Positions 3,113 through 19,718 of a stretch of 64,000 nt of DNA are shown in pieces (the first letter of the stretch is position 1; every line of letters starts with the position of its first letter). The position numbers and the translations under genes were made by a program. Source of the stretch: a bacterium (lineage in GTDB: Bacteria; UBA10199; 2-02-FULL-50-16; JAJFLM01); NCBI GenBank assembly GCA_965216315.1, contig CBDCFN010000016.1:1824001-1888000 (forward strand), read 5' to 3'. The notes below the pieces were generated by a model. That model was not told where the DNA came from. It saw nothing but the letters and a program-made list of their open reading frames with translations, and searched no databases.

Positions 3113-4603
3113 TTAGTATAAGAAGGAACGCACCGAATCACGGATCAAGAGCAGTATCTTGGACGGAAACAGGCCCCAATAGGCTGTCAGCAGCAAACAA
3201 ACAAATATCCCTGTTAAGAGGGAATAACCGCTTTGAAGCATCCTCTTTTCCGAAGCGGGTTTAAAAAAGAGAATTTGGATGATGCTAAGCGCTCCAAATA
3301 AGGAAAGCGCCCAGCCAATCAGGGCCAGTGAACCATAAATGATCAGGCCACCATCAAAGACGACCCGCAAAATAGAAAAAACACCAATAAAACCAGCTGT
3401 CATCGGAACCCCGGCGAGACCCAAGACAAATAAAGCCATCGAACAGGCGAGCCAAGGATGAATCCGCGCAAGCCCACTAAACTCCGTCAGCTCCAACGGC
3501 TCATCACCACGCCGGGCCGCAGCCATGATGACGGCAACCAAACCCATTATAAGTATCATATAAACGAGCACGTAATAGGAAAAAGCCACAAAGGCCTCTT
3601 CTTGGAGGCGTCCACTGCGACCCGCAACGGCGAGCGCCAGCAAAAGAAAACCAACATGCCCAATCGCCGCATAAGCCATCCTCCGCTTAAAGTGACTTTG
3701 CTGCAGTGCCTGCAATGGCCCGATAATGACCGCAGCACTGCCGGCAATACCCAATAAATGAGTCCATCCTAGGATAGTAGGACTCCATCCGGCGATAACA
3801 AGGCGCGACAAAACAGTAACGCCCACTAACTTACTGATGACGGCCATAAACCCGACAGAGACCGTATCTCCACCTTCATAGACATCCGGTTCGCTAAAAT
3901 AAAACGGAACCCACCCCATCTTAATGGCCACACCACCAAGAAACAGCAGTCGTCCCAGCTCCTGAATGTCATCCAATGACTGCGTTCGACCGACAGCAAA
4001 AACTTCAGCCAATTCCGTTTTGCCCAACGCTCCATAAATAAAAACAAGACCGACAAAGAGACAAAGAGACCCCAACCCCGTCGTCAAATAATATTTCGTC
4101 ATCACTTCATGACGATGGCGGGCAAATACTCCATTACCTAACCAGACAACCAAGGGCAAAATCGTTAATTCATAACCTATATAGATCCCAAGCAAATCAT
4201 GGCTATGAATCACCGCAACAGCACCCAACGCACTTAAAAGCGGTAATGAAAAAATTTCGTTTGCCTGGGATCGATCTCTACCATGAGTTTGGCAAAGCAC
4301 TAAAAGAAGCATGACTATCACGATAAGGCTGAAAAAGAGGGAGAAACGATCAATACTGAATATTCCCCATACTGAAGATCCGCCCCGCAGCCACTGCCAC
4401 GCCGTAAAAAACAATACCAATACCGATGCACTCAGGCTGAGATAAAAGCGAAACCGTGCACCCTTGCGGCTGGAAAATGACTCCCACATCGAAAGAAAAA
4501 CTGACGTCACCAGCCACGCACCACAACTTAACCACACGAAGGGAATCGAGATGCTGCGCATGGCCTGCCAATACGGCTCAATTATTTCGAGCGGCAAAAT
4601 CAT
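3113..4603 (-). CDS. nuoN: Divergent NuoN-like subunit (second copy)
   Basis: Multi-TM; KMGWVPFYFSEPDVYEG, KRRMAYAAIGH, LAGVPMTAGF; GGAGG RBS before ATG 4603. Confidence 0.8.
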   Translation of the reverse strand: MILPLEIIEPYWQAMRSISIPFVWLSCGAWLVTSVFLSMWESFSSRKGARFRFYLSLSASVLVLFFTAWQWLRGGSSVWGIFSIDRFSLFFSLIVIVMLLLVLCQTHGRDRSQANEIFSLPLLSALGAVAVIHSHDLLGIYIGYELTILPLVVWLGNGVFARHRHEVMTKYYLTTGLGSLCLFVGLVFIYGALGKTELAEVFAVGRTQSLDDIQELGRLLFLGGVAIKMGWVPFYFSEPDVYEGGDTVSVGFMAVISKLVGVTVLSRLVIAGWSPTILGWTHLLGIAGSAAVIIGPLQALQQSHFKRRMAYAAIGHVGFLLLALAVAGRSGRLQEEAFVAFSYYVLVYMILIMGLVAVIMAAARRGDEPLELTEFSGLARIHPWLACSMALFVLGLAGVPMTAGFIGVFSILRVVFDGGLIIYGSLALIGWALSLFGALSIIQILFFKPASEKRMLQSGYSLLTGIFVCLLLTAYWGLFPSKILLLIRDSVRSFLY

Positions 4604-6050
4604 ACCCTCCTTCAACCAGAATCTCAGGCTTTACTTTTGAGAGCCACAAAGTCGCTGCACGGCGCGTCTTATCCAAGAGAAGATGAGGTTGCAGTCCTGT
4701 CACAACCATCATCATCACAATGATAAGGGCTGCCGCCCAGTAGCGTAAAGAACGCCGCCAATACAGGGTTTGAGTACGCAAATCCTGACAACAAATCGCA
4801 ACAGCGCAAGCAACTATAATAAATCCAATTATGGTGATAATTGCCGCACTAAGATGCCAGGCGACAGCAGCCGACAAGAGCAAAATAATTCCCACAAAGA
4901 GGCCTGTTCCTGGCAAACCAAGAGCACTGGCCATGGCTATTGAAAGAAATGCTTTTCCTAGCGGCTGCACCTCTTTCAGTGGATCAGATGACTCGGTAGG
5001 AACTTGTTGCACATACATTACTAACGAAAAAATTATGACGATCAAGCTATGGCCGGTCAGAATCATGAACACACTCTGCGCAGCATCGACCGTCAAGAGG
5101 GAAACGCCCATCCAAAGCAGCCCCACATGCGCCACACTCAACCATACCAGACGCGCTGGCAATTTACTGGGAGCCAGACATAAGGCCGCTCCCCCTATTA
5201 CGGAGATTAATCCAATAATACTAAACAGAGGAGCATAAGTTTCCACAGCGACTGGGAATAACGGATAGGCAAAGCGGAACACAAAATAAAGACTTGCCTT
5301 GATTACCAGTGCCAACATGAGCAGGTAGGTGGCAGGCGTTGCTCCATGAAGCACGCGCCCAATCCACATCTGAAGTGGCATGGCGCCGGACTTAAGTAAA
5401 AGGCCTAATAAGAGTATCACCCCATATTTTTTTTGAACGTCCGGCGTCGCAACCCTTTCGATGAGGCTTGCCAAATCAGTAACATCACCTGCGGCGCGCG
5501 CTACGACAAATAAACCTAGCCACAGCGCCAAGCTTCCCACCAGGTTAATGGCCAAAAACCAAGCAGCACCTTCCGATTGCCGGCTTTCTCGACGAATAAA
5601 TATAAAGGTTAGTAATGTGGCGATCTCATAGGCTATTAAACAAAGCAACATATCAAGCGCCATAAAATAGAGGGCCCACACCGAGGCCATCAATAAACAC
5701 AGCGCCCCCGTAACACGGCTATCACCCTCTTTTCTCGACAAAAATGGGAGAAAAGGTGTTACGAGAAAGACCAGACCGACAAATAAAATGGAAATACCAT
5801 CCAGCCCGACCCAATAATGTATTCCTAACTCAGGTATCCACGCGGCAAACTCTGAAAATTCAAAGCCTATCGCACCGCGAAATTCCCGAAACAATCCGAG
5901 CCACCCGACAAATACCAGTAAAGATACAAGGAGACCCCAATTCCTAATCCAGGCCTTGCGGTGCTGAGCAAACAAGAAAAAACTACCGGCACCTAAGGCG
6001 GGAACAATGAGCAGGATACTTGAAATATGTCCTAACAAAATATCTTTCAT
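4578..6050 (-). CDS. nuoM: Divergent NuoM-like subunit (second copy)
   Basis: WIPELGIHYWVGLDGIS, LGLPGTG; ATG 6050 overlaps the upstream stop as ATGA. Confidence 0.8.
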   Translation of the reverse strand: MKDILLGHISSILLIVPALGAGSFFLFAQHRKAWIRNWGLLVSLLVFVGWLGLFREFRGAIGFEFSEFAAWIPELGIHYWVGLDGISILFVGLVFLVTPFLPFLSRKEGDSRVTGALCLLMASVWALYFMALDMLLCLIAYEIATLLTFIFIRRESRQSEGAAWFLAINLVGSLALWLGLFVVARAAGDVTDLASLIERVATPDVQKKYGVILLLGLLLKSGAMPLQMWIGRVLHGATPATYLLMLALVIKASLYFVFRFAYPLFPVAVETYAPLFSIIGLISVIGGAALCLAPSKLPARLVWLSVAHVGLLWMGVSLLTVDAAQSVFMILTGHSLIVIIFSLVMYVQQVPTESSDPLKEVQPLGKAFLSIAMASALGLPGTGLFVGIILLLSAAVAWHLSAAIITIIGFIIVACAVAICCQDLRTQTLYWRRSLRYWAAALIIVMMMVVTGLQPHLLLDKTRRAATLWLSKVKPEILVEGGYDFAARNN

Positions 6051-7888
6051 ATAATAATCCAAGCCATAATCATCGCTAGACCAAGAACCATCCAGAAAAG
6101 CGCATGTTGCACGAGGCCGGTCTGCAACTGAAGTAACGCACGTCCACTTAATCGCAGCCCCGATGCAATTCCTTCCGTCAAGAGTCCCCACTGAACCTTC
6201 TCGATGATAAATTTCTCTAGTACCTCTCGAGAAACAAACTGAATCGGCCGGACAATACAACATTCAACCAGCCCTTCCGCTATTAAACCATCGGTAGACC
6301 ATTGCCTCAGTTTCTTAAAGCGGGTTTTTGGATGATCATCCTGTTTGCGCGATATGATAAAAGTGGCTCCTGCCGCAACCATTAGACTCAATAAGGTTGC
6401 AAGCCCTAATACCAAATGAGCGGTAAATCCATAAACCTCTGATCGGATTGGCAAATGATCTTCAAAAACGGGAAACCAGAAACGATGGAGACTGCCAGGA
6501 CCATAAAAAACCTCCGGTATTGCAGGCCATGTCGCGAGAGCAAGTGGCAGACTGAAACCAACTAAAATTATCAGCCAGCGTAAGCGGCCTAACTTGTCAG
6601 AGCCTGACTCAACAGCACCAGCGGATCTCCAGAAAATCTGCACTACAAGACGACTCGCCGCAATTGCCGTCATAAGGCTCGCGCCTGTTAACAGCACCCA
6701 TGTGAAATAGCGCTGTTGGTTAAAAGCGTGCCAAATAATTTCATAACGCGTAAAAAATCCTGGGAAAGGAGCCAGGCCTATTAATGAAACCACCGCAATA
6801 ATCGCTAGTATGCGGACATGGCGAGACAAAGCCACGCACAACAAAGCGATTGCCCCAATAGAAACAGTCCAATGCGATAGCCCTTCAGGCACACCGCCGG
6901 TTCCAAAGGCCGCAATAGCAATGGCGACTTGACTCCAAGCCAACAATGACACGGTCCGATGCGAACCTGTTTGAAAGCACGCAAACAAAGCCGCCATAAA
7001 GGCGCTCACGGCTCCAACAATTTCAAGACCCAGCAAAGCCCAAGAATTCATGAGGGTAAGCGAATGAATGCGAGCCACATAATAGAGCCCAAGCAAGCCA
7101 AATCCAGCGCACAAAACCCAGGTCAGCACGGTCAATGAAGTCGTATCCAGGCGTCTCAACCAAAATGCAAACGGCCAGGCAAGCGTGATCAATAAAGGCG
7201 GAATCAACAGATACCAGAGCAACGACCGGCTAATAGCTCCGGCCTGATCAGCGAGCGATGCAAAACTAAGCACAATTTTTGCGTCTGCTGACGCCTCAAT
7301 TGATAACAAAGGAAGGAGCCCAACCATGGCAATAATCAAGGCGCCACTACACAGCTGTGTCAGCCATAACAACTTGTTATCACGGAAATGCCAACACAGT
7401 AAGAATGCGATTCCTTCCCACCCGAATATAAATATCGGCAGGCTTTCCGCCCACAATGCCGTGAGAAGAAAGAAGAGTCCCGCATTAAGCAGCGATGTAT
7501 CACGTGCCATTCGTTCCGGCTTATCAAGAAGCCAGAGATTCATAAAAATTGTCAGAAATGCGGCTATGACACTAAAAATAAGCGTCATTGGATCAATCCA
7601 GAAAGTGAGATCAAATTCGCCTAGCTCAGTATGAAACCAATCCGTATACGGCCCAATGACCAGGCCATCAGGGGCTCCGTCCGTCATGAATACAATGAGA
7701 CCAATCAGGAGAATAGAGATCAAAGGCGCCCCTATAGCCGAGCTAACGACAACAGGGATCGCACGTCCTTTGGCAGTGCCATCCGAAGCAAGCGCAATAA
7801 CCGCATTGATAGCAGCGCTTATAAGAGGTGCTAGCAAAACGATCAAGGTGAGATCGTTAATGGAGAAGCCAAAAAGAAGTGTCGACAT
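6047..7888 (-). CDS. nuoL: Divergent NuoL-like subunit (second copy)
   Basis: FWIDPMT, FGWEGI, PFPGFFTRYEI, C-terminal LQTGLVQH. Confidence 0.8.
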   Translation of the reverse strand: MSTLLFGFSINDLTLIVLLAPLISAAINAVIALASDGTAKGRAIPVVVSSAIGAPLISILLIGLIVFMTDGAPDGLVIGPYTDWFHTELGEFDLTFWIDPMTLIFSVIAAFLTIFMNLWLLDKPERMARDTSLLNAGLFFLLTALWAESLPIFIFGWEGIAFLLCWHFRDNKLLWLTQLCSGALIIAMVGLLPLLSIEASADAKIVLSFASLADQAGAISRSLLWYLLIPPLLITLAWPFAFWLRRLDTTSLTVLTWVLCAGFGLLGLYYVARIHSLTLMNSWALLGLEIVGAVSAFMAALFACFQTGSHRTVSLLAWSQVAIAIAAFGTGGVPEGLSHWTVSIGAIALLCVALSRHVRILAIIAVVSLIGLAPFPGFFTRYEIIWHAFNQQRYFTWVLLTGASLMTAIAASRLVVQIFWRSAGAVESGSDKLGRLRWLIILVGFSLPLALATWPAIPEVFYGPGSLHRFWFPVFEDHLPIRSEVYGFTAHLVLGLATLLSLMVAAGATFIISRKQDDHPKTRFKKLRQWSTDGLIAEGLVECCIVRPIQFVSREVLEKFIIEKVQWGLLTEGIASGLRLSGRALLQLQTGLVQHALFWMVLGLAMIMAWIII

Positions 7889-7896
7889 AGAGTATT

Positions 7897-8202
7897 TTAG
7901 TTCTTCAAAAAGTTCTGTTTGCTTACATCCACAGAACTTTGGTCCTTAGCAATACGAACAACAAGGCCCAAACCGATAAGGAACTGAGCCGTCATCGCAA
8001 CAAGCAAAACGATCAATCCGAGAGACCCAAGAGCATCTCCATGAAAGCGCCAACCAGCCACCCACCCTAAAGCCGTTCCCTGAAACATTAATAGTATCGC
8101 AAATACGAGGGTTAACAGGTTGCGACGTCCCAGCAGAACCATGAGACCAATACCAAAAAGTATCCAACTCAAAAGAAGACAAGCACCAAAACTCAGGCTC
8201 AT
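7897..8202 (-). CDS. nuoK: Divergent NuoK-like subunit (second copy)
   Basis: 101 aa, 3 TM, GIGL...RRN motif, position in the J-K-L-M-N order. Confidence 0.75.
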   Translation of the reverse strand: MSLSFGACLLLSWILFGIGLMVLLGRRNLLTLVFAILLMFQGTALGWVAGWRFHGDALGSLGLIVLLVAMTAQFLIGLGLVVRIAKDQSSVDVSKQNFLKN

Positions 8203-8687
8203 GTATCCTCCCTACTGCCGCGAAGTAGAAATCGCATGGAAATAAAAACCGTAAATAATAAAAGTCCTGCAAGACTCAGCAAAGTGATTCCGTTGGAACC
8301 GAGATTTAGAAAAAAAAGCTTGGGAGATACGCCGAACGCCGTTTTATCTGGCAGCAGGCTACTCATATGCAACAAGACAAGCCCCCCGAACAGCACGGAC
8401 AATAACAAACCTGTCAGTTGCGCAAAAGAAAGGCTCCGTTTGGTATAAAGTCTCTCAGGCCCGACCGCGCGAATAAATTGCACCGCTCCTGCCAAGAGAA
8501 GCATCATTATAATGAATTGAATCATGGCGAGTATGGGTGCCTGGAGGGCAACCAAAAGGATAATCATACCCAGCACATTGAGGAAAACTGCCAGTACGAT
8601 CTTGAGGGGGCTTCTCAAGACAAGTATGGCTACAGATGAACTTATGGCTGTAACAGCCCCAAGATTAAAGAGAATCCCCTCCCCCAT
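8199..8687 (-). CDS. nuoJ: Divergent NuoJ-like subunit (second copy)
   Basis: Five hydrophobic segments, LQAPILAMIQ resembling NuoJ LxAxFxAxxQ, gene order. Confidence 0.7.
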   Translation of the reverse strand: MGEGILFNLGAVTAISSSVAILVLRSPLKIVLAVFLNVLGMIILLVALQAPILAMIQFIIMMLLLAGAVQFIRAVGPERLYTKRSLSFAQLTGLLLSVLFGGLVLLHMSSLLPDKTAFGVSPKLFFLNLGSNGITLLSLAGLLLFTVFISMRFLLRGSREDT

Positions 8688-8749: not shown

Positions 8750-10240
8750 TCAGCGCAGCATTTGCGTCGAGGCCTGGACCCACTCGGCGACTGGCTGCCA
8801 GAAAACACCCAAGTAAAGGGTCAGGATGGCCAAGGCCCCCAACAGAGTCGAATAGGAAAGGCCGGGTTGAGCCAACAAATCCTCATTTTCGGCCTTATCG
8901 AAGAACATGACCTTGACGACATACATATAGTAATAGAGGGCGATAACGCTGTTAAGCGCGCCTATCACCGCGAGGACATAAAGTTCGCTCGAAATAACCG
9001 CCTTAAAAAGATATAACTTGCCGATAAAGCCGGCAGTCGGTGGCAGCCCTGTTAGGCTGAACATGAAAAGGGTCATCGCAACGGCAACGGCCGCCCCTCT
9101 GGGCCCACGAGAGCTGAGCCCCGCATAATCAGCAATCTTCTCTACACCGAATTGATTGGATACAATGATAACGACCAAGAACGCGCCGATATTCATGACA
9201 AGATAGACAACCATATACAGCATAACGGACTCGACGGCCGCCTGATTGAGCGCCGCAAGTCCCATCAACATGTAGCCGGCATGCGCAACGCTAGAATAAG
9301 CCAACAGGCGCTTCATATTTTGTTGGCGCAAGGCAATGAGGTTACCTACGGTCATTGTAGCTATAGCTAGATAAGATAAAACGTCACTGATACCAATCGT
9401 CTTGATATCTATAAACTCGGTCCCATCCGCAAAAAAGAGGCCTATTAAGAGATAACGAATCAATACGGCAAAACCCGCCGCCTTAGGACCAACAGACAGG
9501 AAGGCCGTAAAAGGCGTTGGCGCTCCTTCGTAAACATCAGGGCTCCACATGTGAAAAGGAAACGCAGCTACTTTAAAGCCAAAACCGGCGAGCGACATAA
9601 TCAACGCTAAAAACAGTACGGCTCGATCCGTCGCGTTGAATTGCAAAAATTCAGCAATCTCATTTAATTGCAGCGTCCCCGTCAGGCCAAAAAACAGTGA
9701 AAACCCGTAGATCATGACACCGCTCGCAACACCCCCATAAATCACGTACTTGAGCGCCGCTTCCGTCGAGCGCCGCGCTGACCCAGAATACCCGGTTAAC
9801 AGGTAAGAACTAATACTGACCATTTCAAGCGCCAGATAAATCATCAAAAGATTTGACGCCATCGCTAAAAAATTCATCCCCATCGTCAAAACAAGGATCA
9901 AAATGTAATAACTGGGTGAATCGCTCTGAGCTAAATCTTTGGATCGTTGTGACAAGATAACCGTCAACACCGCCGCCACGCCGAATATATATTTAAAGAA
10001 TAAGCCCATCCCATCAAATGAAGCCATCCCCATAAATATCATTGCCGATTCTTTTGAATGCAAAGTCGCGGCCACAGCCAGGGAGATAATGATTCCAATT
10101 AAGGTCAAGGACCCGTAGATACTCGTCGACGGCTGTTTTTCAGCGCCTTTAAAGAACGTCAGAAAAAACAGTAAAACGATAGTCCCCGCGAGTACGATCT
10201 CCGGAAGGATAAACTGGATGCTTTCTAAATTCCCTAACAT
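8750..10240 (-). CDS. nuoN: NADH-quinone oxidoreductase subunit N
   Basis: EAALKY, FKVAAFPFHMWSPDVYEGAPTP, KRLLAYSSVAHAGY, GFIGK. Confidence 0.95.
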   Translation of the reverse strand: MLGNLESIQFILPEIVLAGTIVLLFFLTFFKGAEKQPSTSIYGSLTLIGIIISLAVAATLHSKESAMIFMGMASFDGMGLFFKYIFGVAAVLTVILSQRSKDLAQSDSPSYYILILVLTMGMNFLAMASNLLMIYLALEMVSISSYLLTGYSGSARRSTEAALKYVIYGGVASGVMIYGFSLFFGLTGTLQLNEIAEFLQFNATDRAVLFLALIMSLAGFGFKVAAFPFHMWSPDVYEGAPTPFTAFLSVGPKAAGFAVLIRYLLIGLFFADGTEFIDIKTIGISDVLSYLAIATMTVGNLIALRQQNMKRLLAYSSVAHAGYMLMGLAALNQAAVESVMLYMVVYLVMNIGAFLVVIIVSNQFGVEKIADYAGLSSRGPRGAAVAVAMTLFMFSLTGLPPTAGFIGKLYLFKAVISSELYVLAVIGALNSVIALYYYMYVVKVMFFDKAENEDLLAQPGLSYSTLLGALAILTLYLGVFWQPVAEWVQASTQMLR

Positions 10241-10251
10241 TAACTTCTCGC

Positions 10252-11757
10252 CTACATTCCCAATGCTACGAGATACGGTTTCATAGCATCGTTAAGCCCG
10301 ACCAAAGACGTATTCATCAGATCCAACACGACCTTGGGATAGACACCCACAATAATGACAATAATCGCTAAGGGAGCGATCGACAGTATCTCGCGACCAT
10401 TCACATCGGGAAGACTCTTATATTTTTCATTAGGCGTCCCCAAGAAGACGCGCTGAAAGCACCAGAGCATATATCCCGCAGTCAAAACAACGCCACTGAC
10501 CGAAATAATCGTGTAGACACGCCAGGTCTTAAATCCACCAATGAAGCACAAGGCCTCGCTAATAAACCCTGATAACCCCGGCAACCCAAGCGCGGCAAAA
10601 AACGCAAGCCCGGTCAGAACGGCATAACGCGGCATAATCGACGCCAATCCCCCGAAACCATCTAAATTCCGATGATGCGCACGATCGTAAATAATCCCGA
10701 CTATCAAGAATAGTTGGGCCGTGATCGTGCCATGATTAAACATTTGCAGAACAGCGCCATTCATTCCCTCGGCCGTAAAAGAAGCCATGCCCAACATACA
10801 AAAACCCATGTGACTAATCGAAGAGTAGGCAATGAGTTTTTTGAAATCTTTTTGGGCCATCGCGCACAAGGCTCCATAGACGATATTGATCACGCCCAGG
10901 ACGACAATCAACTGAGCAAAAGTCGCCGTCGCGTCCGGCAAGAGCGGATAACAAATCCGCATGATTCCATAGATTCCCATCTTGAGCAAAATCCCGGCCA
11001 GGATAACCGAAATCGCAGTCGGCGCTTGCACGTGAGCATCTGGCAACCAGGTATGAAAAGGAAATGCCGGAATCTTAATTGCAAAACCGATGAACAGCGC
11101 CAGCCAAGCAACATTACGGAAGGTCGAATTAGTCAGAATCCCCGTATGCGTCTCCTGGTTGGCCAGCGTGACGAGATTAAATACGTTACCATCACTGTAG
11201 AGATAGAAGGCCAACATGACCAAAAGCATCATCACGCTGCCAAACAGCGTATAAAGAAAAAACTTAATCGCTGCATATTCGCGACGCTCTCCACCCCAGA
11301 TACCGATTAGAAAATACATCGGCAATAACATGACTTCCCAAAAGACGAAGAAAAGGAAAAAATCGAGCGCACAAAACACACCCATCATTCCTGAGCAAAG
11401 CATTAGGAAAAGCGAAAAATAGCCTTTAACGGACTTCTTAATATTCCATGACGCCAGGACACAGACAAAGGAGATCAGCGGCGTCAATAAAATCATCGGG
11501 ATCGAGACCCCATCGGCCCCCATAAAATATTCAATGTTAAAAGCCGGAATCCAGGGATAAGGCCCTTCGATGAACTGCAAGGATGTCGTGTTCGTATCAA
11601 ATGCCGCATAAAGCATAATAGCGGCAATAAGCGTAGGAATTGTCGTCAGCAATGCCGTCCAACGAATCACTTCTTCTTTTTCCTTGGGGATAAGCAAAAT
11701 AATTAATGCCCCGACCAAGGGAAAGAATGTTAAAAATGAAAGATAGGGGAAATCCAT
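10252..11757 (-). CDS. nuoM: NADH-quinone oxidoreductase subunit M
   Basis: FWEVMLLPMY, KIPAFPFHTWLPDAHVQAPT, LLKMG, GFISE. Confidence 0.95.
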   Translation of the reverse strand: MDFPYLSFLTFFPLVGALIILLIPKEKEEVIRWTALLTTIPTLIAAIMLYAAFDTNTTSLQFIEGPYPWIPAFNIEYFMGADGVSIPMILLTPLISFVCVLASWNIKKSVKGYFSLFLMLCSGMMGVFCALDFFLFFVFWEVMLLPMYFLIGIWGGERREYAAIKFFLYTLFGSVMMLLVMLAFYLYSDGNVFNLVTLANQETHTGILTNSTFRNVAWLALFIGFAIKIPAFPFHTWLPDAHVQAPTAISVILAGILLKMGIYGIMRICYPLLPDATATFAQLIVVLGVINIVYGALCAMAQKDFKKLIAYSSISHMGFCMLGMASFTAEGMNGAVLQMFNHGTITAQLFLIVGIIYDRAHHRNLDGFGGLASIMPRYAVLTGLAFFAALGLPGLSGFISEALCFIGGFKTWRVYTIISVSGVVLTAGYMLWCFQRVFLGTPNEKYKSLPDVNGREILSIAPLAIIVIIVGVYPKVVLDLMNTSLVGLNDAMKPYLVALGM

Positions 11758-11770
11758 AGAACACTCCTAG

Positions 11771-13822
11771 TTACAGCGCTAGTCGCCAAAACATAAATAC
11801 CAAAACGCCTACCACCATTACGTAGACGTAATTTTGAATCTTGCCCGTCTGGATTAGACGTAATTCCTTACCACTAATCTGAATTGAATCGGCAATGCGA
11901 TTCACAATGCCGTCGACAAAAATCCTGTCAAACCAACCACTGATCCAAGAAATTATTTTCGTGAGAAAAGCCGAAAAGTTAACTATGCCATCTACGACTC
12001 GATTATCAAAAGCGGCTAGAAAATTCATAAGTATCAACACCGATTTGACGAAAGTCGCCTGATAGATCTCATCGACGTAAAATTTATTATAGGCCAGCTG
12101 ATATAAGCGTGAGAAACGGCGAGCCAGCTTTTCGGGAATATCCTGGCGCTTGGTGTAGAATAAAAAGCCGACATAACAAGCGATACCGGCAACGGCCAAG
12201 GAAAGGCCCATTAGGATATATTCCGCAATTGGAATTTCATGGTGCCCACCTTTGGGCACAGCCATCGCCGGCGCCAACCAGTCGTGCAAAATGTGTGAAT
12301 GATCAAGCCCAACGAGATGCCCTAAGGCTGCCGGGACACCGAGAAAACCACCAAGAATAGAAAGACCCGCCAAGACGATTAAGGGCACGGTCATTGAACG
12401 TGGCGACTCATGAATATGCGATTGAACCTCTGCATCGGACCGATTCTTGCCTAAAAAGGTCATCCCCAGGAGGCGGAACATATAGAAGGCTGTCATCGCG
12501 GCAGCGACCAGCCCGACGGCCCAGAGGATCTTATTATGCTCAAAGGCATGCCACAGAATCTCATCCTTACTAAAGAACCCTGCAAACGGAAAAATACCGG
12601 CAATGGCCAGAGTTCCAATCAGAAAAGTGGAATAGGTAATGGGCATCTTCTTTTTAAGTCCACCCATCACGCGCATATCCTGATGATTACTCATCGCATG
12701 AATGACAGAACCGGAACCGAGGAAGAGTAATGCCTTAAAGAATGCATGAGTAATAAGATGAAAAATGCCTGCAACGAATGCCGCCACGCCCATGGCCCCC
12801 ATCATGTAACCAAGTTGACTGACGGTCGAATACGCCAGGACCTTTTTAATATCATTCTGAACCAGACCGATCGAAGCCGCAAATATCGCGGTCGCAAATC
12901 CAACGGTGGCAACAACCGCCATCGTCTCAGGCGCCAGGATGAATAAACTCGACATACGTCCGATCATGTATACCCCGGCCGTGACCATAGTCGCCGCGTG
13001 AATCAACGCCGAAACCGGGGTCGGACCCGCCATGGCATCCGGCAACCATACATATAAAGGAATCTGTGCCGACTTTCCTGTCGCACCGACAAAAAATAAG
13101 AGTGTGGCTAGACCGACCGCACTCACACCAAACAAAGTCACACCTTCGAGCAAGGGGGCATACTGCCTGATCTCAGTAAACTTCACAGTCGGGTGCCCTA
13201 AACTATGCAGGGTCCAGAAGAGAATAAACAGGCCAACCAGAAATGCAAAGTCGCCAATACGGTTGACGATAAAGGCCTTCATCCCGGCCTTGGCTTTTTC
13301 AATGTCCTTATGCCAAAAGCCAATAAGTAAATACGAGCAGAGCCCCACGCCTTCCCAACCGACAAACATCAACAGGACATTCTCTCCCATCACTAAGAGC
13401 AACATCGCAAAGCTAAAAAGATTTAAATAACAGAAATAACGCGAATAGCTCGGGTCGTGATGCATGTATCCCACGGAATAGACGTGAATGAGAAAACCGA
13501 CACCCGTGATAACCATCATCAAGGAGACCGAAAGAGGATCAAGTAAAAAGGCAATATCCGCCTGCACATTGCCGATATAAATCCATTGCCACAGGTCTAC
13601 CGTGATCGAACGCGACGTCGGCGGTAACCCCATAAGATGTATTAAGACGCCCAGCGAAAGCAAAAAGGAGAGTGCGATGCTGCCGCACGCAACCGTATGA
13701 ATGAAGCTCTTGACCTGCCGTGCGCCAGAAAAGCTATAGAGCCCGTTAATAAGGGCACCAAGCAACGGGAATAAAGGAATCAATCCCGCTAAATTAATAC
13801 AAAGTTGAGTAAAGCCTTCCAC
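11771..13822 (-). CDS. nuoL: NADH-quinone oxidoreductase subunit L with a lengthened lateral helix
   Basis: GWEGVG, NRIGD, GKSAQIPLYVWLPDAMAGPTPVSALIHAATMV, HAFFKA, FFSKDEI. Confidence 0.95.
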   Translation of the reverse strand: MEGFTQLCINLAGLIPLFPLLGALINGLYSFSGARQVKSFIHTVACGSIALSFLLSLGVLIHLMGLPPTSRSITVDLWQWIYIGNVQADIAFLLDPLSVSLMMVITGVGFLIHVYSVGYMHHDPSYSRYFCYLNLFSFAMLLLVMGENVLLMFVGWEGVGLCSYLLIGFWHKDIEKAKAGMKAFIVNRIGDFAFLVGLFILFWTLHSLGHPTVKFTEIRQYAPLLEGVTLFGVSAVGLATLLFFVGATGKSAQIPLYVWLPDAMAGPTPVSALIHAATMVTAGVYMIGRMSSLFILAPETMAVVATVGFATAIFAASIGLVQNDIKKVLAYSTVSQLGYMMGAMGVAAFVAGIFHLITHAFFKALLFLGSGSVIHAMSNHQDMRVMGGLKKKMPITYSTFLIGTLAIAGIFPFAGFFSKDEILWHAFEHNKILWAVGLVAAAMTAFYMFRLLGMTFLGKNRSDAEVQSHIHESPRSMTVPLIVLAGLSILGGFLGVPAALGHLVGLDHSHILHDWLAPAMAVPKGGHHEIPIAEYILMGLSLAVAGIACYVGFLFYTKRQDIPEKLARRFSRLYQLAYNKFYVDEIYQATFVKSVLILMNFLAAFDNRVVDGIVNFSAFLTKIISWISGWFDRIFVDGIVNRIADSIQISGKELRLIQTGKIQNYVYVMVVGVLVFMFWRLAL

Positions 13823-13826
13823 TCCC

Positions 13827-14135
13827 CTACCCCTTCAATAAAGTCGCAGCTTCCACATCAATATTGTGGAAGGACCTGTAGATTGCGACGACGATTGCCA
13901 GAGCAACGGCCGCCTCTGCAGCTGCCAAAACAATAATAAATAAAGTAAAGACCGTCCCGGCAACCACCTGTCCGCCATAATGAGCAAAGGCAACAAAGTT
14001 GATCGCCGCAGCATTCAAAATAAGTTCAACTCCCATCAAGATGGCAATCGCATTGCGGCGGGTCATGACCGTATAAAGTCCTAAACAGAGGATGAGGGCT
14101 GACAAAGCAACAAAATACCCCAAACCTAAAGTCAT
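13827..14135 (-). CDS. nuoK: NADH-quinone oxidoreductase subunit K
   Basis: RRNAIAILMGVELILNA, AAAEAAVALA. Confidence 0.95.
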   Translation of the reverse strand: MTLGLGYFVALSALILCLGLYTVMTRRNAIAILMGVELILNAAAINFVAFAHYGGQVVAGTVFTLFIIVLAAAEAAVALAIVVAIYRSFHNIDVEAATLLKG

Positions 14136-14635
14136 CGTACTGCCCTCCTGACCAACACTACGGCCCCCACCAACGCGCCCAACAGGAGCACTGAGATCAC
14201 TTCAAAAGGAAGCAAGTACTCCTTGAGCAATGCATTCCCGATCGGTGCCACAACTGACTGACTCGTCAGCGCTTCCGTAGCTAGCCAACGAGCACCGGGC
14301 AACACCGTCAACAAACCAATAAAAAGCAAAAAGATAATCGGCACAGCCATTTTCCAATGGGCCGGCTTATTCGTCACTGAACTATCCGCAATATCCGCCG
14401 TCAACATCACTGCAAACAAAATCAGGATTAAAATGCCGCCCACGTATACAAGCAACTGCGTCACAGCGACAAAATCCGCGGCCAGTAAACCGTAGAGCAC
14501 TGCTGTACCCAATAAGGTCCCCATTAATGCAAAGGCGGAGTAAATGAGATTATGTGAGAAGGCCACGACACAAGTAGACGCCACCATAAATAGGGCAACT
14601 AAAGTAAATACAACTAATTCAATCGATGGCATCAT
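14132..14635 (-). CDS. nuoJ: NADH-quinone oxidoreductase subunit J
   Basis: ADFVAVTQLLVYVGGI, YLLPFEVISVLLL; start placed just after the nuoI stop. Confidence 0.93.
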   Translation of the reverse strand: MMPSIELVVFTLVALFMVASTCVVAFSHNLIYSAFALMGTLLGTAVLYGLLAADFVAVTQLLVYVGGILILILFAVMLTADIADSSVTNKPAHWKMAVPIIFLLFIGLLTVLPGARWLATEALTSQSVVAPIGNALLKEYLLPFEVISVLLLGALVGAVVLVRRAVR

Positions 14636-14636
14636 G

Positions 14637-15116
14637 TTATTCGGTCTTTTCCGCTTTAGGTGCCACATAGGGCACGATTTTTTCCCCTTCCGGGACAAAA
14701 TTAAATACGAGCTCGCTCATGCTAAAGCTGGCTTTCTCAAATTCTTTGGTAAAATGAATCGCCCCGGTTGGGCAGGGTTCCGTGCAGAGCCCGCAATACA
14801 TACATTTACCGAGATCAATATCAAATTGAGTCAGAAAGCGTTCTTTAGTTTCTTTATCTTTATCCGTCTTGATCAGGATGCAGTCGATTGGACAATCCAT
14901 CATGCAGGCCAAACAGGCGGTACAAATTTCCATATCCACCTTAAGCAAACCGCGAAACCGCTCAGGCAAAGCTTCGGCAATGGGCTTCGGCGTCTTGTCC
15001 GGATACTGAACGGTTACGGGACGCCGAAACAAATGGGAAAAAGTAATACTCATCCCTTCAAAAATCGAGGTCGCCGCATCTGAAATATTTTTAAAATAGT
15101 TTGTTACTGCCGTCAT
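14637..15116 (-). CDS. nuoI: NADH-quinone oxidoreductase subunit I
   Basis: Two CxxCxxCxxxCP 4Fe-4S motifs, TVQYP, RFRG. Confidence 0.95.
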   Translation of the reverse strand: MTAVTNYFKNISDAATSIFEGMSITFSHLFRRPVTVQYPDKTPKPIAEALPERFRGLLKVDMEICTACLACMMDCPIDCILIKTDKDKETKERFLTQFDIDLGKCMYCGLCTEPCPTGAIHFTKEFEKASFSMSELVFNFVPEGEKIVPYVAPKAEKTE

Positions 15117-15134
15117 AGCAGCTCATCTCCATCA

Positions 15135-16340
15135 TCAAACAAACGGGTTTAAGTGTATTTCCGCCTTGGAAAAACGCAGCTGATAAATAACCCGATATAG
15201 AAAATAAACAATCGTCGCTACCGCCCCAAAAAAGAGCACGTAACTGGCAAACAAAGACCCTGCGGGCAGCAACAACATCCACACGGCGTTGCCAAGAACA
15301 CAGAAAAACCCGAAGGGGACAAAATACTTCCAGCAAAGACCCATCAATTGATCCACGCGCACCCGCGGCAAAGTCCAACGTATCCAGATAACCACGAAGA
15401 CCACCGCTAGCGCCTTAACCATAAACGTCGCTAGCTGCATCAGATTCAAAAGAACCACGCTCTTTTCCGTGGCCCAACTCGCCACGTCCGGCGGCAATTG
15501 CCAGCCACCTAGAAAAAGCGCCGTACTCACTGCCGCGATCAAGTAAAGATTTGCCCATTCTTCCAGAAAAAAAAGCGCAAAACGCATTCCCGAATATTCC
15601 GTATTGTAACCAGACACCAACTCACTCTCGGCCTCGGGTAAGTCAAAAGGTGTCCGATTCCCTTCTGCGAGCGCGGCAATAAAAACGATAAAGAAAGTAA
15701 TCACCGTAAACGGACTCTGAAACAAGTACCACTGCCAGGGATAAGCTCCCTGCCCGCCAATAATTCCTTGGAAAGAAAGAGTGCCGGACAACATTACAAT
15801 GACGAGAATCCCCAATGCCAATGGAATTTCGTAACTGATCACCTGGGCCGCAGAACGCATGGCTCCAAGTAGCGACCATTTGTTATTTGAAGACCATCCA
15901 CTCATGATCACACCGACCGTCACAATACTCGTCACCGCAATCATGTAAAAAATACCGACATTAAGATCGGCAACAATGACTTTGCTACTGAAAGGGATTG
16001 TAACAAAGGCCGCAAACATTCCGATCAATACAAGATAAGGCCCCAGACGAAACAGTAATGGATCCGCGGCACGCGGGATGATATCTTCTTTGAGTAGAGC
16101 TTTAAGTCCATCGGCAATCCACTGGAGTATGCCTTGGGGCCCCACCCGGTTCGGCCCAACGCGACTCATCATCCGCGCCGCGACACGCCTTTCGATAAAA
16201 CTCGTAATGCCTGCAAATGGCGCCACAAAAAGCATCAGCATGGCCAAGGCCGCCGCAAACTGCAGTCCGAGATGAATCGCCCACGACACATCCTTCAACG
16301 CAGGTGCCTTTTCGACAATGATGTTGACCAGTGCTTCCAT
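15135..16340 (-). CDS. nuoH: NADH-quinone oxidoreductase subunit H
   Basis: RVGPNRVGP, NRTPFDLPEAESELVSGYNTEYSG, PRVRVDQ. Confidence 0.95.
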   Translation of the reverse strand: MEALVNIIVEKAPALKDVSWAIHLGLQFAAALAMLMLFVAPFAGITSFIERRVAARMMSRVGPNRVGPQGILQWIADGLKALLKEDIIPRAADPLLFRLGPYLVLIGMFAAFVTIPFSSKVIVADLNVGIFYMIAVTSIVTVGVIMSGWSSNNKWSLLGAMRSAAQVISYEIPLALGILVIVMLSGTLSFQGIIGGQGAYPWQWYLFQSPFTVITFFIVFIAALAEGNRTPFDLPEAESELVSGYNTEYSGMRFALFFLEEWANLYLIAAVSTALFLGGWQLPPDVASWATEKSVVLLNLMQLATFMVKALAVVFVVIWIRWTLPRVRVDQLMGLCWKYFVPFGFFCVLGNAVWMLLLPAGSLFASYVLFFGAVATIVYFLYRVIYQLRFSKAEIHLNPFV

Positions 16341-16342
16341 AT

Positions 16343-17488
16343 TTACCTGTCTATCTCCGGAGCGACGACATCCAGACTTGCAATAAAAGCAATCAAATCA
16401 GCCACCATCATGCCGCGACTGATCTTTTCACATATGGCCATCGCCGTATAAGAGCTCGTTCTAAACCGGAGCCGATAGGGTTTGTCACTCCCATCACTGA
16501 CTAGATAGACGCCCAAATCACCGCGAGTACTTTCCGTCCTGACATAGACTTCACCCTTGGGGGGCCGTAATTTGCGGGGGACCTTTGACAAAAAATCCCC
16601 CGCCGGCATCAGCTCAAAACACTGTCGAAGTATCTTGACTGATTCGCCCATCTCACGAATGCGAACATCATAACGATCGAAACAATCGCCAACCGTTCCC
16701 GCATCTCCGCGACCCACCTGAACATCAAAAGCAAGTTCCGGGTACACCGAGTAAGGAATATCCTTACGGAGATCCCATTTGACCCCCGAACCCCTTAAGT
16801 TAGGACCTACTAGGTTGTAAGCAATCGCGTCTTCCTTGGAAATGACACCAACATTGCCTAAGCGTTTGCGAAAAATCTTATTACCGGTCAAAAACCGATC
16901 GTATTCATCGAGAATCAGCTCGAAACGATCGAGAGCTTTCAGAAGCCGCTCTGCAAAGCCATCCGGCAGATCAAAAATAACGCCACCGATACGCGCATAG
17001 TTGTACGTAATCCGTTGCCCACACAACTCCTCGATAAAATTATTAAAAATCTCGCGTTCTCTGAGAGCGTGAATAAAAGGGGTGTAAGCGCCCACATCCA
17101 TTCCGACGCTACCAACAGACAAAAGATGCGAAACGATGCGGTTTAATTCCGCCGCGATCACTCTCAAGAACTCACCACGCCGTGGCACTTCAATGCTGGC
17201 AAGCTTTTCGACCGCCATCGCATACGCAATATTGGCATTCATGGCGGCCAGATAATCCACCCGGTCCGTCCAGGGCATGAATCCATTATAGGTCGCTTGC
17301 TCGGCAATCTTTTCAATGGAACGATGGAGATACCCTATTTCCGGTACTGCTTTGCTCATGACCTCGCCATCGGTATGGACAACAAAACGTATCACCCCGT
17401 GGGTACTCGGATGATGGGGCCCCATGTTCAGGACCATGTCTTGTTCGCGATCCGCTGGCTCAGCGGTATTTGGCATTATTGTTGTCAT
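16343..17488 (-). CDS. nuoD: NADH-quinone oxidoreductase subunit D
   Basis: [27 protein letters not shown]-terminal EIDR; no NiFe CxxC motifs. Confidence 0.95.
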
Positions 17489-17493
17489 ATGGT

Positions 17494-17643
17494 TTATTGG
17501 AGTAATGATGTCCGTGTTGTGCTGATTCCGTGGTAGTCTTCCGCGGCTTTAATAGGGGCTTGCGTCGCCCCCTCCAGAAGCAAAGCTCCTGGAGCCTCCC
17601 CCTCTCGCTCGCGTTGCTCGCTATACGACATTCTGTAATCCAT
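17494..17643 (-). CDS. Putative 49-aa micro-ORF: in-frame repeat fused to a recoded NuoC tail
   Basis: Hand translation [49 protein letters not shown]; fills the nuoC-nuoD gap with 5-nt spacers on each side. Confidence 0.4.
17553..17623. repeat. 71-bp structured repeat, family A, copy 1
   Basis: TAGGGGCTTGCGTCGCCCCCTCCAGAAGCAAAGCTCCTGGAGCCTCCCCCTCTCGCTCGCGTTGCTCGCTA; four copies in the window. Confidence 0.9.
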
Positions 17644-17648
17644 GCCGA

Positions 17649-18176
17649 TCATTGCAGCAACGATGTCCTTGTAGTACTGATTCCGTGATAATCTTCCGCT
17701 TCCTTATAATCTTTTCTTAAGGGGTGGCCGGGCCAATCATCAGGCATCATGATGCGCCGCATATCGCTATGACCATCAAAAACAATTCCGAATAAATCGT
17801 AGATTTCACGTTCAAACCAGTTGGCTATCGGCCAAACGGCTTCAACTGTCGGGACTTTTGGAGTGCCCTCATGAGTCAAAACAACTTTAAAGGCAATACT
17901 ATGCCCGTGTTTATAAGAAAAAAGATTGTAGACAACTTCAAACGACTCTTTGCGATCAATCGCCGTCTGATCACTTAAGCAATCAAAGTCAAAGCTATCC
18001 ATCACTTTCATCAGTTCGCATACATCTTTGATTCGCGCCGCAGGAATAACGATGTATGTATCACCCGCATGCCCCGGCTCATCCTTGGCGGGGGCAGGAA
18101 TCTGCCCTTCGCAGAGTTGAAACTCATCGTCTGGAAATTTCTCTTTGATTGCTTTTAAGATTTCTTGAGTCATCAT
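17649..18176 (-). CDS. nuoC: NADH-quinone oxidoreductase subunit C
   Basis: WFEREIYDLFGIVFDGH, RRIMMPDDWPGHPLRKD; start placed after the nuoB stop. Confidence 0.95.
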   Translation of the reverse strand: MMTQEILKAIKEKFPDDEFQLCEGQIPAPAKDEPGHAGDTYIVIPAARIKDVCELMKVMDSFDFDCLSDQTAIDRKESFEVVYNLFSYKHGHSIAFKVVLTHEGTPKVPTVEAVWPIANWFEREIYDLFGIVFDGHSDMRRIMMPDDWPGHPLRKDYKEAEDYHGISTTRTSLLQ

Positions 18177-18193
18177 ACTCTGCAAATTCTTCG

Positions 18194-18688
18194 CTAAGCT
18201 GCTTGAGTCCGCCGCACCAGAAATTTTTCCTTGCGCATTTTTTCTTGTATCTTGAGTAAGCCTTCTGTCAGGGCCTCGGGACGTGGGGGGCAACCCGGCA
18301 CGTAGACATCAACCGGAATAATCTTGTCGACACCTTTCACAACTGAGTAGGCTGGTTGAAACAAGCCACCACAGTTAGAGCAACTGCCCATCGAAATCAC
18401 GTATTTTGGTTCAGCCATCTGGTCATATAAAAGCTTGGTTCGAAGCGCCATCTTGTAGGTGAGCGTTCCAGCAACAATCAATAGATCCGATTGTCGCGGC
18501 GTCGCCCTTGGCACGGAACCAAAACGATCCAGATCCGCTCGAGGGCCACCCGTCTGCATCAGTTCAATGGCGCAACAAGCAAGTCCAAAGAGGAGATACC
18601 ACAACGAAGAGGCCCGGCCCCAATTGATCACATCATCGAGTTTGGTTGTGATCAAAGTATCCGGCAGTTGATTCTTAAGCGTAAACAT
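18194..18688 (-). CDS. nuoB: NADH-quinone oxidoreductase subunit B
   Basis: [30 protein letters not shown]. Confidence 0.96.
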
Positions 18689-18703
18689 CTCGCACTCCCC
18701 AAC

Positions 18704-19147
18704 TTAGGCAGCCTTTGCCGCAGTGCCTTCGTCTTTAGAATCGTTCGTAGGCGCGGTCAGCTCCGACGATAGTTGCTTGATCCACTCCAAGTCTCCATGG
18801 ACCCAGACATAAATCAAACCCAGTAAAAGTATCCCTACAAAGACAGCAATCTCGCCTAACGCCAACCAGCCCTGACCATTCGCCATCCATTCTTTAAAAA
18901 CGACCCCAACCGGCAACATCAAAGCGATTTCAACGTCGAAAATGATGAACAGTAACGCGATCAGATAAAAGCGCATGTTGAAGTTGATCCAGGCGGGACC
19001 AACGGGGACCTCCCCACACTCGTAAGTCGTTAATTTTTCAGCAGTTGGGACGGAGGGACGCACCAGTCGGCCCAGACTGAGTGAGACCATCACAAAGCCG
19101 AAGCCAACAAGGAAAAAGACTAATATATTCGACAAGTTGAGAGGCAT
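18704..19147 (-). CDS. nuoA: NADH-quinone oxidoreductase subunit A
   Basis: KLTTYECG, RFYLIALLFIIFDVE; AAGGAG RBS before ATG 19147. Confidence 0.95.
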   Translation of the reverse strand: MPLNLSNILVFFLVGFGFVMVSLSLGRLVRPSVPTAEKLTTYECGEVPVGPAWINFNMRFYLIALLFIIFDVEIALMLPVGVVFKEWMANGQGWLALGEIAVFVGILLLGLIYVWVHGDLEWIKQLSSELTAPTNDSKDEGTAAKAA

Positions 19148-19211
19148 TTGACTCCTTGCATCAAACCGCGTCGTATACTTATCGAGGCCCCTGGGCATCG
19201 TCAAGGGCTTT

Positions 19212-19718
19212 ATGATTAGAATCATGAGGAAATGCCTAGTCTTTCTCCGAATGCGGAGTTTGACAAGCGTACGGATGCCCCGTAAAGAAAGCTCCGTGTC
19301 AGCAACTTGGACAAAAGTGGCCCTGGTGAGCCTCGGAATGCTTATTTTAGCAAGCCCTGCCGGCTATGCGCAAGAGGCAGAGCCGGCCGCCGCTCCGGAG
19401 GAAGCCGAGACCAAGATCCCCGGAACCGGCTCTGACACCTTCATCCAGGTCCAAGTTCACAAGATTCTGCTGACGTTCGTGGACTTTCATAAACACGAGC
19501 CACTCCGGGCCGCGAAAGAACAAATGAGATCCATCCCCGGGGTCACGGATTTCATTCCCCATACGGCGACCAAGGGGCTCATCACCTATGATGTCCGTTA
19601 TTCAGGAACCCCTCGCCTCCTCATGAAAGCCCTCAAAGACACTATCGGCGTAAAATATGAGTTGGGTCTCAAAGAAATAGCTAAAAAAGAGTGGGAAATT
19701 ACGGTTCGAAAATTATAA
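19212..19718 (+). CDS. Hypothetical exported protein
   Basis: Signal-peptide-like segment ending AGYA; true start probably downstream of 19212. Confidence 0.6.
   Translation: MIRIMRKCLVFLRMRSLTSVRMPRKESSVSATWTKVALVSLGMLILASPAGYAQEAEPAAAPEEAETKIPGTGSDTFIQVQVHKILLTFVDFHKHEPLRAAKEQMRSIPGVTDFIPHTATKGLITYDVRYSGTPRLLMKALKDTIGVKYELGLKEIAKKEWEITVRKL

Follow-up and report, generated by a model that had tools for sequence, protein, structure and literature searches.

The window analysed here, a stretch of 64,000 nucleotides of bacterial DNA (contig CBDCFN010000016.1, positions 1,824,001 to 1,888,000), encodes on its minus strand an eleven-gene complex I operon, nuoABCDHIJKLMN (19225 down to 8750), followed by a divergent J2-K2-L2-M2-N2 set (8687 down to 3113). 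The subject of this analysis is the NuoL of the eleven-gene operon, in which a 26-residue unit of the C-terminal lateral helix is doubled. By domain set and fold the protein is a NuoL/ND5 antiporter-like subunit (Pfam E-values of 1.1e-82 for PF00361, 2.2e-21 for PF00662 and 2.3e-10 for PF01010). It belongs to a large, old, multi-phylum family in which a lengthened lateral helix, or strap, occurs in nuoABCDHIJKLMN operons that have a single nuoM and lack nuoE, nuoF and nuoG. The features of that family found in the window are tandem 26-residue FDxxV[VI]DGxVN units of fixed length, and a gene order with one nuoM and without nuoEFG. On the sample examined, the lengthened helix is far wider in distribution than a second nuoM.

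The order of open reading frames and their Pfam matches place a single nuoM between nuoL and nuoN, its start lying 13 nucleotides past the nuoL stop, and a Pfam search of each frame found no nuoE, nuoF or nuoG in the window's nuo cluster. A preliminary description of this DNA had called it a canonical set with a single nuoM. The single nuoM stands, but the set itself is the eleven-gene form without nuoEFG, and the NADH-type cluster lies elsewhere in the genome.

Within NuoL, the motif FDNRVVDGIVN begins at residue 605 and FDRIFVDGIVN at residue 631, a spacing of 26 codons (78 nucleotides), which confirms the repeat seen in the preliminary description; the span given there, 11900-12010, covers unit 1 and the motif of unit 2. 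That description had called the duplication exact, which is true of the spacing but not of the sequence, as the two units share 10 of 26 residues (8 of 11 within the motif) and 33 of 78 nucleotides. In 200 shuffles of the NuoL sequence, no pair of 11-mers reached 8 matches at offsets of 12 to 60. An exact spacing combined with such diverged sequence indicates that the duplication is old. Measured from NKFYVDE up to the Q of QTG, the distance is 79 residues in this NuoL, 56 in the NuoL2 of the downstream set and 50 in the third NuoL of the genome, so that NuoL2 is indeed about 23 residues shorter, as first noted.

Comparison with solved structures shows the extra length to be an insert. In T. 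elongatus NdhF1 (6hum_F), adjacent chain positions align to residues 598-623 and then to 649-679 of the window protein, leaving residues 624-648 as the insert. When the C-terminal 110 amino acids of NuoL were used as query, six PDB sequences matched, each with one motif, and no solved chain among these six spans both units. In the PDB chains with printed alignments, the lone motif aligns to both NuoL copies or to one, and by position it is unit 2, just before QTG and the last transmembrane helix (TM16), that corresponds to the single unit of solved NuoL and NdhF. The standard NuoL, Nqo12, NdhF1 and ND5 proteins (4he8, 3rko, 7z7r, 6hum, 8qby, 8e9g) are otherwise of common family and fold with the window protein (phmmer E-values of 2.6e-143 to 1e-113, with NdhF1, NuoL and Nqo12 as the best solved matches) and share with it the domain set, the motif, in single copy, and the QxG cap before TM16. 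The difference is that solved NuoL and NdhF1 have one motif unit whereas the window NuoL has two, and that the NKFYVDE-QTG distance is 53 in NdhF1 (a hand count on the alignment) and 50-56 in standard-length NuoL of this genome and its relatives, versus 79 here. Thus, the helix carries a 26-residue insert relative to solved NuoL and NdhF, and the idea that it is no longer than standard in alignment can be set aside.

Table 1. Features of the window's complex I region and of related clusters in the same genome (C16, contig coordinates; all others, window coordinates).
Feature	Position	Strand	Description
nuoL	11771..13822	-	683 aa, GTG start; antiporter-like subunit L with lengthened lateral helix; Pfam PF00361, PF00662, PF01010
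NuoL repeat unit 1 of lateral helix	11933..12010	-	residues 605-630, FDNRVVDGIVNFSAFLTKIISWISGW
NuoL repeat unit 2 of lateral helix	11855..11932	-	residues 631-656, FDRIFVDGIVNRIADSIQISGKELRL
NuoL lateral helix HL	11852..12085	-	residues 580-657, single continuous 78-residue helix in AlphaFold2 model
NuoL last transmembrane helix TM16	11777..11839	-	residues 662-682 in model; Q658-T-G660 cap motif just before
nuoM	10252..11757	-	501 aa; the cluster's only nuoM; Pfam PF00361, PF01059
nuoN	8750..10240	-	496 aa; Pfam PF00361
nuoA, B, C, D, H, I, J, K	13827..19225	-	Pfam family for each open reading frame; nuoE, F, G not among them
Divergent J2-K2-L2-M2-N2 set, downstream	3113..8687	-	context, outside the lengthened-helix feature; NuoL2 helix of standard length
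Second nuo cluster (NADH-type)	C16:302456-311995		three PF00361; 613-aa NuoL with one motif, nuoG, adjacent nuoF
Mrp-like cluster	C16:1925352-1932732		about 37 kb past the window end; small subunits, two MrpD-like (492, 497 aa), one MrpA-like (616 aa)

An AlphaFold2 model of NuoL, run with an 85-row alignment, has a mean predicted local distance difference test score (pLDDT) of 88.9; residues 580-657 form one helix, with block pLDDT of 62-82, and TM16 follows at H662-682. The lengthened strap is thus modelled as a continuous helix without loop or break, although the model is of the NuoL subunit alone, so that the strap could still loop out in the complex. The model matches solved NuoL, Nqo12 and NdhF with Z of about 50 over about 590 residues (4he8_F: Z 50.5, root mean square deviation (rmsd) 4.7 A, 591 residues aligned; 7z84_L: Z 50.0, rmsd 1.7 A, 547 residues aligned), and the low-rmsd alignments to solved NuoL (1.7-2.0 A) end at about model residue 603-607, which is the start of unit 1.

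One further likeness was seen in the cyanobacterial NDH-1MS subunit NdhF3 (PDB 6tjv_F, residues 547-602, against window positions 11855-11960). NdhF3 has one motif only, and the stretch immediately ahead of it is similar to the end of unit 1 plus the start of unit 2 in the window NuoL. The duplicated unit may therefore have another frame than the 605-630/631-656 cut used here.

The length of the doubled region is held nearly constant among homologues. Across 85 aligned sequences the column spacing from D606 to Q658 is 52 residues in 68, 53 in 16 and 51 in one, and no column of either unit has more than one gap, unit 1 being free of gaps in all 85. D606 and V614 are invariant in unit 1, as are D632 and D637 in unit 2, where G638, V640 and N641 are conserved at 90% or more; in the cap and TM16, Q658 and G660 never vary, while Y665 is kept in at least 90%. 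The mean frequency of the commonest residue is 0.59 in unit 1 and 0.53 in unit 2, next to 0.55 in TM15 and 0.58 in the helix before the units. A fixed helix length with conservation of both units indicates that the extra unit is functional and has a structural job, and is not a neutral relic. The Q-x-G...Y cap before TM16 looks alike in long and standard-length NuoL on a visual reading of their C-termini, which suggests that TM16 may have the same kind of docking site in both.

The long helix is widespread. Among database homologues of the NuoL C-terminal part, the best 120 (388-750 amino acids, mostly 655-750) show the doubled region when their tails are read, with the first motif degenerate in some; with a strict motif pattern, both copies were matched in just a part of these sequences. 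For a scan of loci, one genome per species was taken, with patterns from six long-helix C-termini, and the best 80 of 532 relatives were kept. The long helix is present in all 80 fetched loci, with an NKFYVDE-QTG distance of 79-83 residues. The genes from nuoL through nuoN are visible in 70 of these, of which 66 have one nuoM and four have two (L069, L070, L104 from Anaerolineae, and L109 from Nitrospiraceae). The remaining ten show no nuoN after nuoM: eight stop at a contig end, and L080 and L101, from related Acidobacteriota metagenome-assembled genomes (MAGs), have a long-helix nuoL and one nuoM with no nuoN-like gene within about 10 kb downstream. Single-nuoM loci with the long helix carry 11 phylum labels, besides unlabelled records, and include the culturable Sorangium cellulosum So0157-2 (L035) and Minicystis rosea DSM 24000 (L082).

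The four loci with two nuoM genes have a helix distance of 79-81 residues, the same lengthening as the 79 of the window. They also carry a nuoG-like gene (4 of 4), whereas the single-nuoM loci in which nuoD and nuoH can be seen, 48 in number, all lack one. No other antiporter-like gene lies in the flank of 61 of the 66 single-nuoM loci, the exceptions being L033, L034, L067, L078 and L084. In L067 (10001-20306, from a Symbiobacterium sp. MAG), two MrpD-like genes and an MrpA-like gene come directly after the long-helix nuoL-nuoM-nuoN, all on one strand; they could form a neighbouring Mrp operon or supply additional modules to the same machine. A fusion of two NuoM units was considered for nuoM frames of 600 to 1,580 amino acids in GC-rich genomes and was rejected: each has a single NuoM-like stretch, and these are over-extended frames. 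As a separate observation, in the standard nuo operons of Minicystis rosea and Sorangium cellulosum (L115, L116) the NuoL frame runs about 100 or more non-membrane-looking residues past TM16, which may be either a genuine domain at the C-terminus or an open frame that is too long.

The preliminary description had read the lengthening as a specific signature of an extra pump and the resulting architecture as unusual. Neither view survives this sampling, since 66 of 70 related loci pair the long helix with a single nuoM, and a single nuoM with a long helix is the norm of the family.

The evolutionary history of NuoL was traced with the repeat region removed (IQ-TREE quick, LG+G4, 82 rows), after dropping partial rows of less than 600 amino acids, L023_1, which is truncated, and L031_6739, a very long branch. 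The window NuoL falls in a 13-row clade of its class (support 99), and its nearest rows are same-class, long-helix, single-nuoM proteins of 61-66% identity. A single clade (SH-aLRT 97) unites the four double-nuoM NuoL and sits inside a 37-row, mostly Acidobacteriota clade (98) that is long-helix and mostly single-nuoM. The window clade is separate from this double-nuoM clade, of which only four loci were sampled. On the tree the number of nuoM genes changes state once and the helix three times. A FastTree of NuoL with all columns agrees with this result. In a FastTree of NuoM, the two Anaerolineae copies are sisters (support 100), those of L069 and L070 fall into two distinct pairs, and the second L109 copy is a long branch. 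The sister Anaerolineae copies fit a later nuoM duplication in a long-helix background.

Closer relatives bear on the downstream set. A NuoL search of 40 relatives found about 15 with a long-type orthologue, and 20 regions were fetched; every region with the C-terminus present has the doubled motif at a distance of 78-79 residues, and 13 close-relative loci have the order nuoL, one nuoM, nuoN. In nine same-class loci (G010, G031, G038, G024, G017, G027, G020, G034, G003) a second nuo operon starting with nuoA' follows directly after nuoN; in G010, G027 and G003, the three for which the remainder was retrieved, it is complete and encodes a NuoL' of its own at the standard 56-residue distance. 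G002, from the same family as the window, has a NuoL2-like gene after nuoN, and G018 has no second arm within 7.6 kb after nuoN. Because same-class genomes pair a long NuoL and one nuoM with either a complete second operon or nothing, the long helix is older than, and independent of, the degenerate arm. A tie between the two, for which a co-occurrence check had been suggested, did not appear: relatives have a second operon or nothing at this place, and 61 of 66 loci elsewhere lack any extra antiporter-like gene. The long-type operon of G003 (L031:6739-8826), a relative from the same taxonomic order as the window, is very divergent, with a NuoL of 33% identity and degenerate repeat motifs, while the tandem second operon is ordinary.

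How does this family relate to known enzymes? The 2M form of complex I is said to have been described by Chadwick, Hemp, Fischer and Orphan in 2018 (ISME J 12:2668). The window NuoL resembles that form in its lengthened helix, 79 residues where the four double-nuoM loci have 79-81, and differs from it in three respects: 2M operons have a second nuoM adjoining the first where the window has one, the four double-nuoM loci sampled carry a nuoG-like gene and the window cluster does not, and the NuoL proteins fall in different clades. Membership of the window operon in 2M is therefore partial, with a helix longer by about 26 residues (79 versus 50-56) on one side, and the lack of a second nuoM and of any grouping with double-nuoM NuoL on the other. 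In passages of papers that cite the original work, the 2M enzyme is defined by an elongated NuoL together with a second NuoM gene next to the first (PMC6606698, PMC7117926, PMC7300363, PMC12342949, PMC7419157). The statement that 2M variants carry a NuoL insertion of about 26 residues agrees with the four double-nuoM clusters, which show this lengthening.

The combination seen in the window has a precedent. In passages of Yu et al. (2022, mBio, PMC9040806), the single-nuoM Complex_I_1 and Complex_I_2 of 'Ca. Manganitrophaceae' are reported to have the same NuoL insertion without the extra subunit; there the mismatch is called curious, and such complexes are proposed to be already able to take an extra subunit or to be in transition. 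These organisms are from a different phylum than the window, and the sameness of the insertion point is taken from the wording of those passages (PMC9040806). The breadth over 11 phylum labels goes beyond what the passages of PMC9040806 report. A literature search, with most subscription journals and supplements outside its scope, returned no report on how widely single-nuoM operons have the lengthened helix, and no structure with four antiporter-like subunits.

What, then, lies under the second unit? The mechanism that I regard as most likely, and put forward tentatively from sequence comparison, is that a second copy of the operon's own NuoM sits beneath the strap. An ancient tandem duplication lengthened the lateral helix, which straps the antiporter-like subunits together, by one 26-residue unit; the strap would then act as a ruler for four modules, with the extra place filled by this second copy to give L-M-M-N (about 2,180 residues for L+M+M+N). 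At 1.5 A per residue, 26 extra residues would come to about 39 A, roughly the width of one antiporter module. In solved structures TM16 reportedly packs on NuoN, according to Efremov, Baradaran and Sazanov in 2010 and Efremov and Sazanov in 2011, and in L-M-M-N it would dock on NuoN as in standard enzymes. A search of PMC8357420 for the docking place of TM16 gave no passage on the subject. The '2M' lineages, with their two nuoM genes, would have arisen by later duplication of the gene within a long-strap background. L-M-M-N is ranked first because the helix length is fixed, the insert repeats a docking motif, the true 2M clusters have the same length, the cap is unchanged and there is no spare gene. 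As a generalisation, which I consider less likely than not, the length of the strap and not the number of genes may set the pump count in the many phyla that have the doubled helix and one nuoM in nuoEFG-less operons, the same NuoM occupying two adjacent places so that eleven genes give a four-pump enzyme, and 2M being a later split between specialised copies. A ferredoxin-type donor is plausible without NuoEFG and, compared with NADH, would release more energy for each electron pair; a fourth pump would therefore be energetically reasonable.

Several points weigh against a doubled NuoM. No solved structure with a lengthened strap is among the matches, so that even the accepted reading of 2M is a model. 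The patterns of the scan derive from long-helix sequences, which means that the proportion of 66 of 70 cannot be read as a population frequency, and the trees are unrooted but for one outgroup, so that gain of a second nuoM looks the same as repeated loss. Single-nuoM and double-nuoM proteins are not set apart by how alike their two units are, the median identity being 8.5/26 in 62 of the former and 9/26 in only three of the latter. Divergence of L, M and N was compared between the long-helix and standard operons of the same seven genomes, in 21 non-independent pairs and with standard operons that may not be orthologous across phyla. The ratio dM/dN is 0.89 in long and 0.90 in standard operons (lower in long in 12 of 21 pairs), which gives no clear extra constraint on NuoM, and dM/dL is 0.94 and 1.03, respectively (lower in long in 17 of 21), again with no usable signal of constraint. 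A prediction of a complex of two NuoM copies (residues 1-500, 13-row alignment, no controls) gave scores of 0.00 and 0.00 against a mark of 0.42, a result that weighs neither for nor against binding.

Two alternatives do without a fourth pump, and both seem unlikely to me, though they deserve consideration. The first is that the strap is simply a longer brace in an L-M-N enzyme, with unit 2 running along NuoN and TM16 placed one module toward the quinone end, beside NuoK/NuoJ, clamping more of the membrane arm. Such an enzyme would keep ordinary stoichiometry, which fits the one-nuoM content of 66 of 70 loci and a helix that is modelled as straight and continuous. However, the cap and TM16 are alike in long and standard NuoL, where NuoK/J would presumably offer a different docking surface, and double-nuoM clusters share the helix length, so that TM16 would have had to switch partner upon duplication of nuoM. 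The second is that unit 2 binds a non-Nuo membrane protein, a neighbouring complex in a supercomplex contact or lipid, or bends back. That arrangement, improbable to my mind, needs no candidate gene in the operon and would sit well with a helix pLDDT of only 62-82, which leaves the true path uncertain; but a length constant to within one residue in 85 homologues, and equal to one docking-motif repeat, points to a partner spaced like antiporter modules, and the model predicts neither loop nor break.

A fourth module from the degenerate downstream set, with NuoM2 or NuoN2 forming a hybrid arm specific to this lineage, is very improbable. The set is adjacent, on the same strand and with intact frames, and G002 of the same family also keeps a NuoL2-like gene after nuoN. 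The long helix is nevertheless far older: nine same-class loci have a long NuoL, one nuoM and then the nuoA'-led second operon, G018 has no second arm within 7.6 kb, and 61 of 66 single-nuoM loci elsewhere have no other antiporter-like gene in the flank. The downstream set, moreover, has its own L2 with a strap of standard length.

Finally, the fourth module might come from a gene unlinked to the operon. Marker genes put the completeness of the genome, which is in 16 contigs, at 98.3%. Its PF00361 matches number 12 and form three clusters: the window holds six, the second, complete nuo cluster three and the Mrp-like cluster three (Table 1). There is no orphan nuoM among these 12. Five other carriers were searched whole, and every PF00361 match is clustered in four of them, the fifth, G042, having one isolated match; G043, G044 and G045 have clustered sets only, and G045 has exactly two L-M-N triplets. 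A gene elsewhere, as raised in the preliminary description, is thus extremely unlikely, although it might lie in a small assembly gap.

Two observations concern other genes of this genome. A second NuoF-like (PF01512) gene lies at G000:C16:2091188-2091703, away from both nuo clusters, and is a candidate electron-input partner of the nuoEFG-less complex, or part of another enzyme. In the window, the listed nuoC frame (17649-18293, TTG start) overlaps nuoB (18194-18688) by 100 nucleotides, and its Pfam match covers only residues 82-199, so that the true start of nuoC is probably further in.

Genome papers take a lengthened NuoL as the mark of a complex I with a fourth proton pump. As the lengthening is far wider than a second nuoM, a lengthened NuoL alone cannot call a '2M' enzyme. 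The window, as a carrier, adds a clear negative, namely that its adjoining degenerate second arm is unrelated to the lengthening. If NuoM does sit twice under the strap, a five-proton complex I, probably linked to ferredoxin, would operate in many bacteria of soils and sediments (Acidobacteriota, Myxococcota, Binatota and others), and a molecular ruler would fix the number of pumps. Otherwise, the accepted interpretation of the 2M insertion would itself have to be reconsidered.

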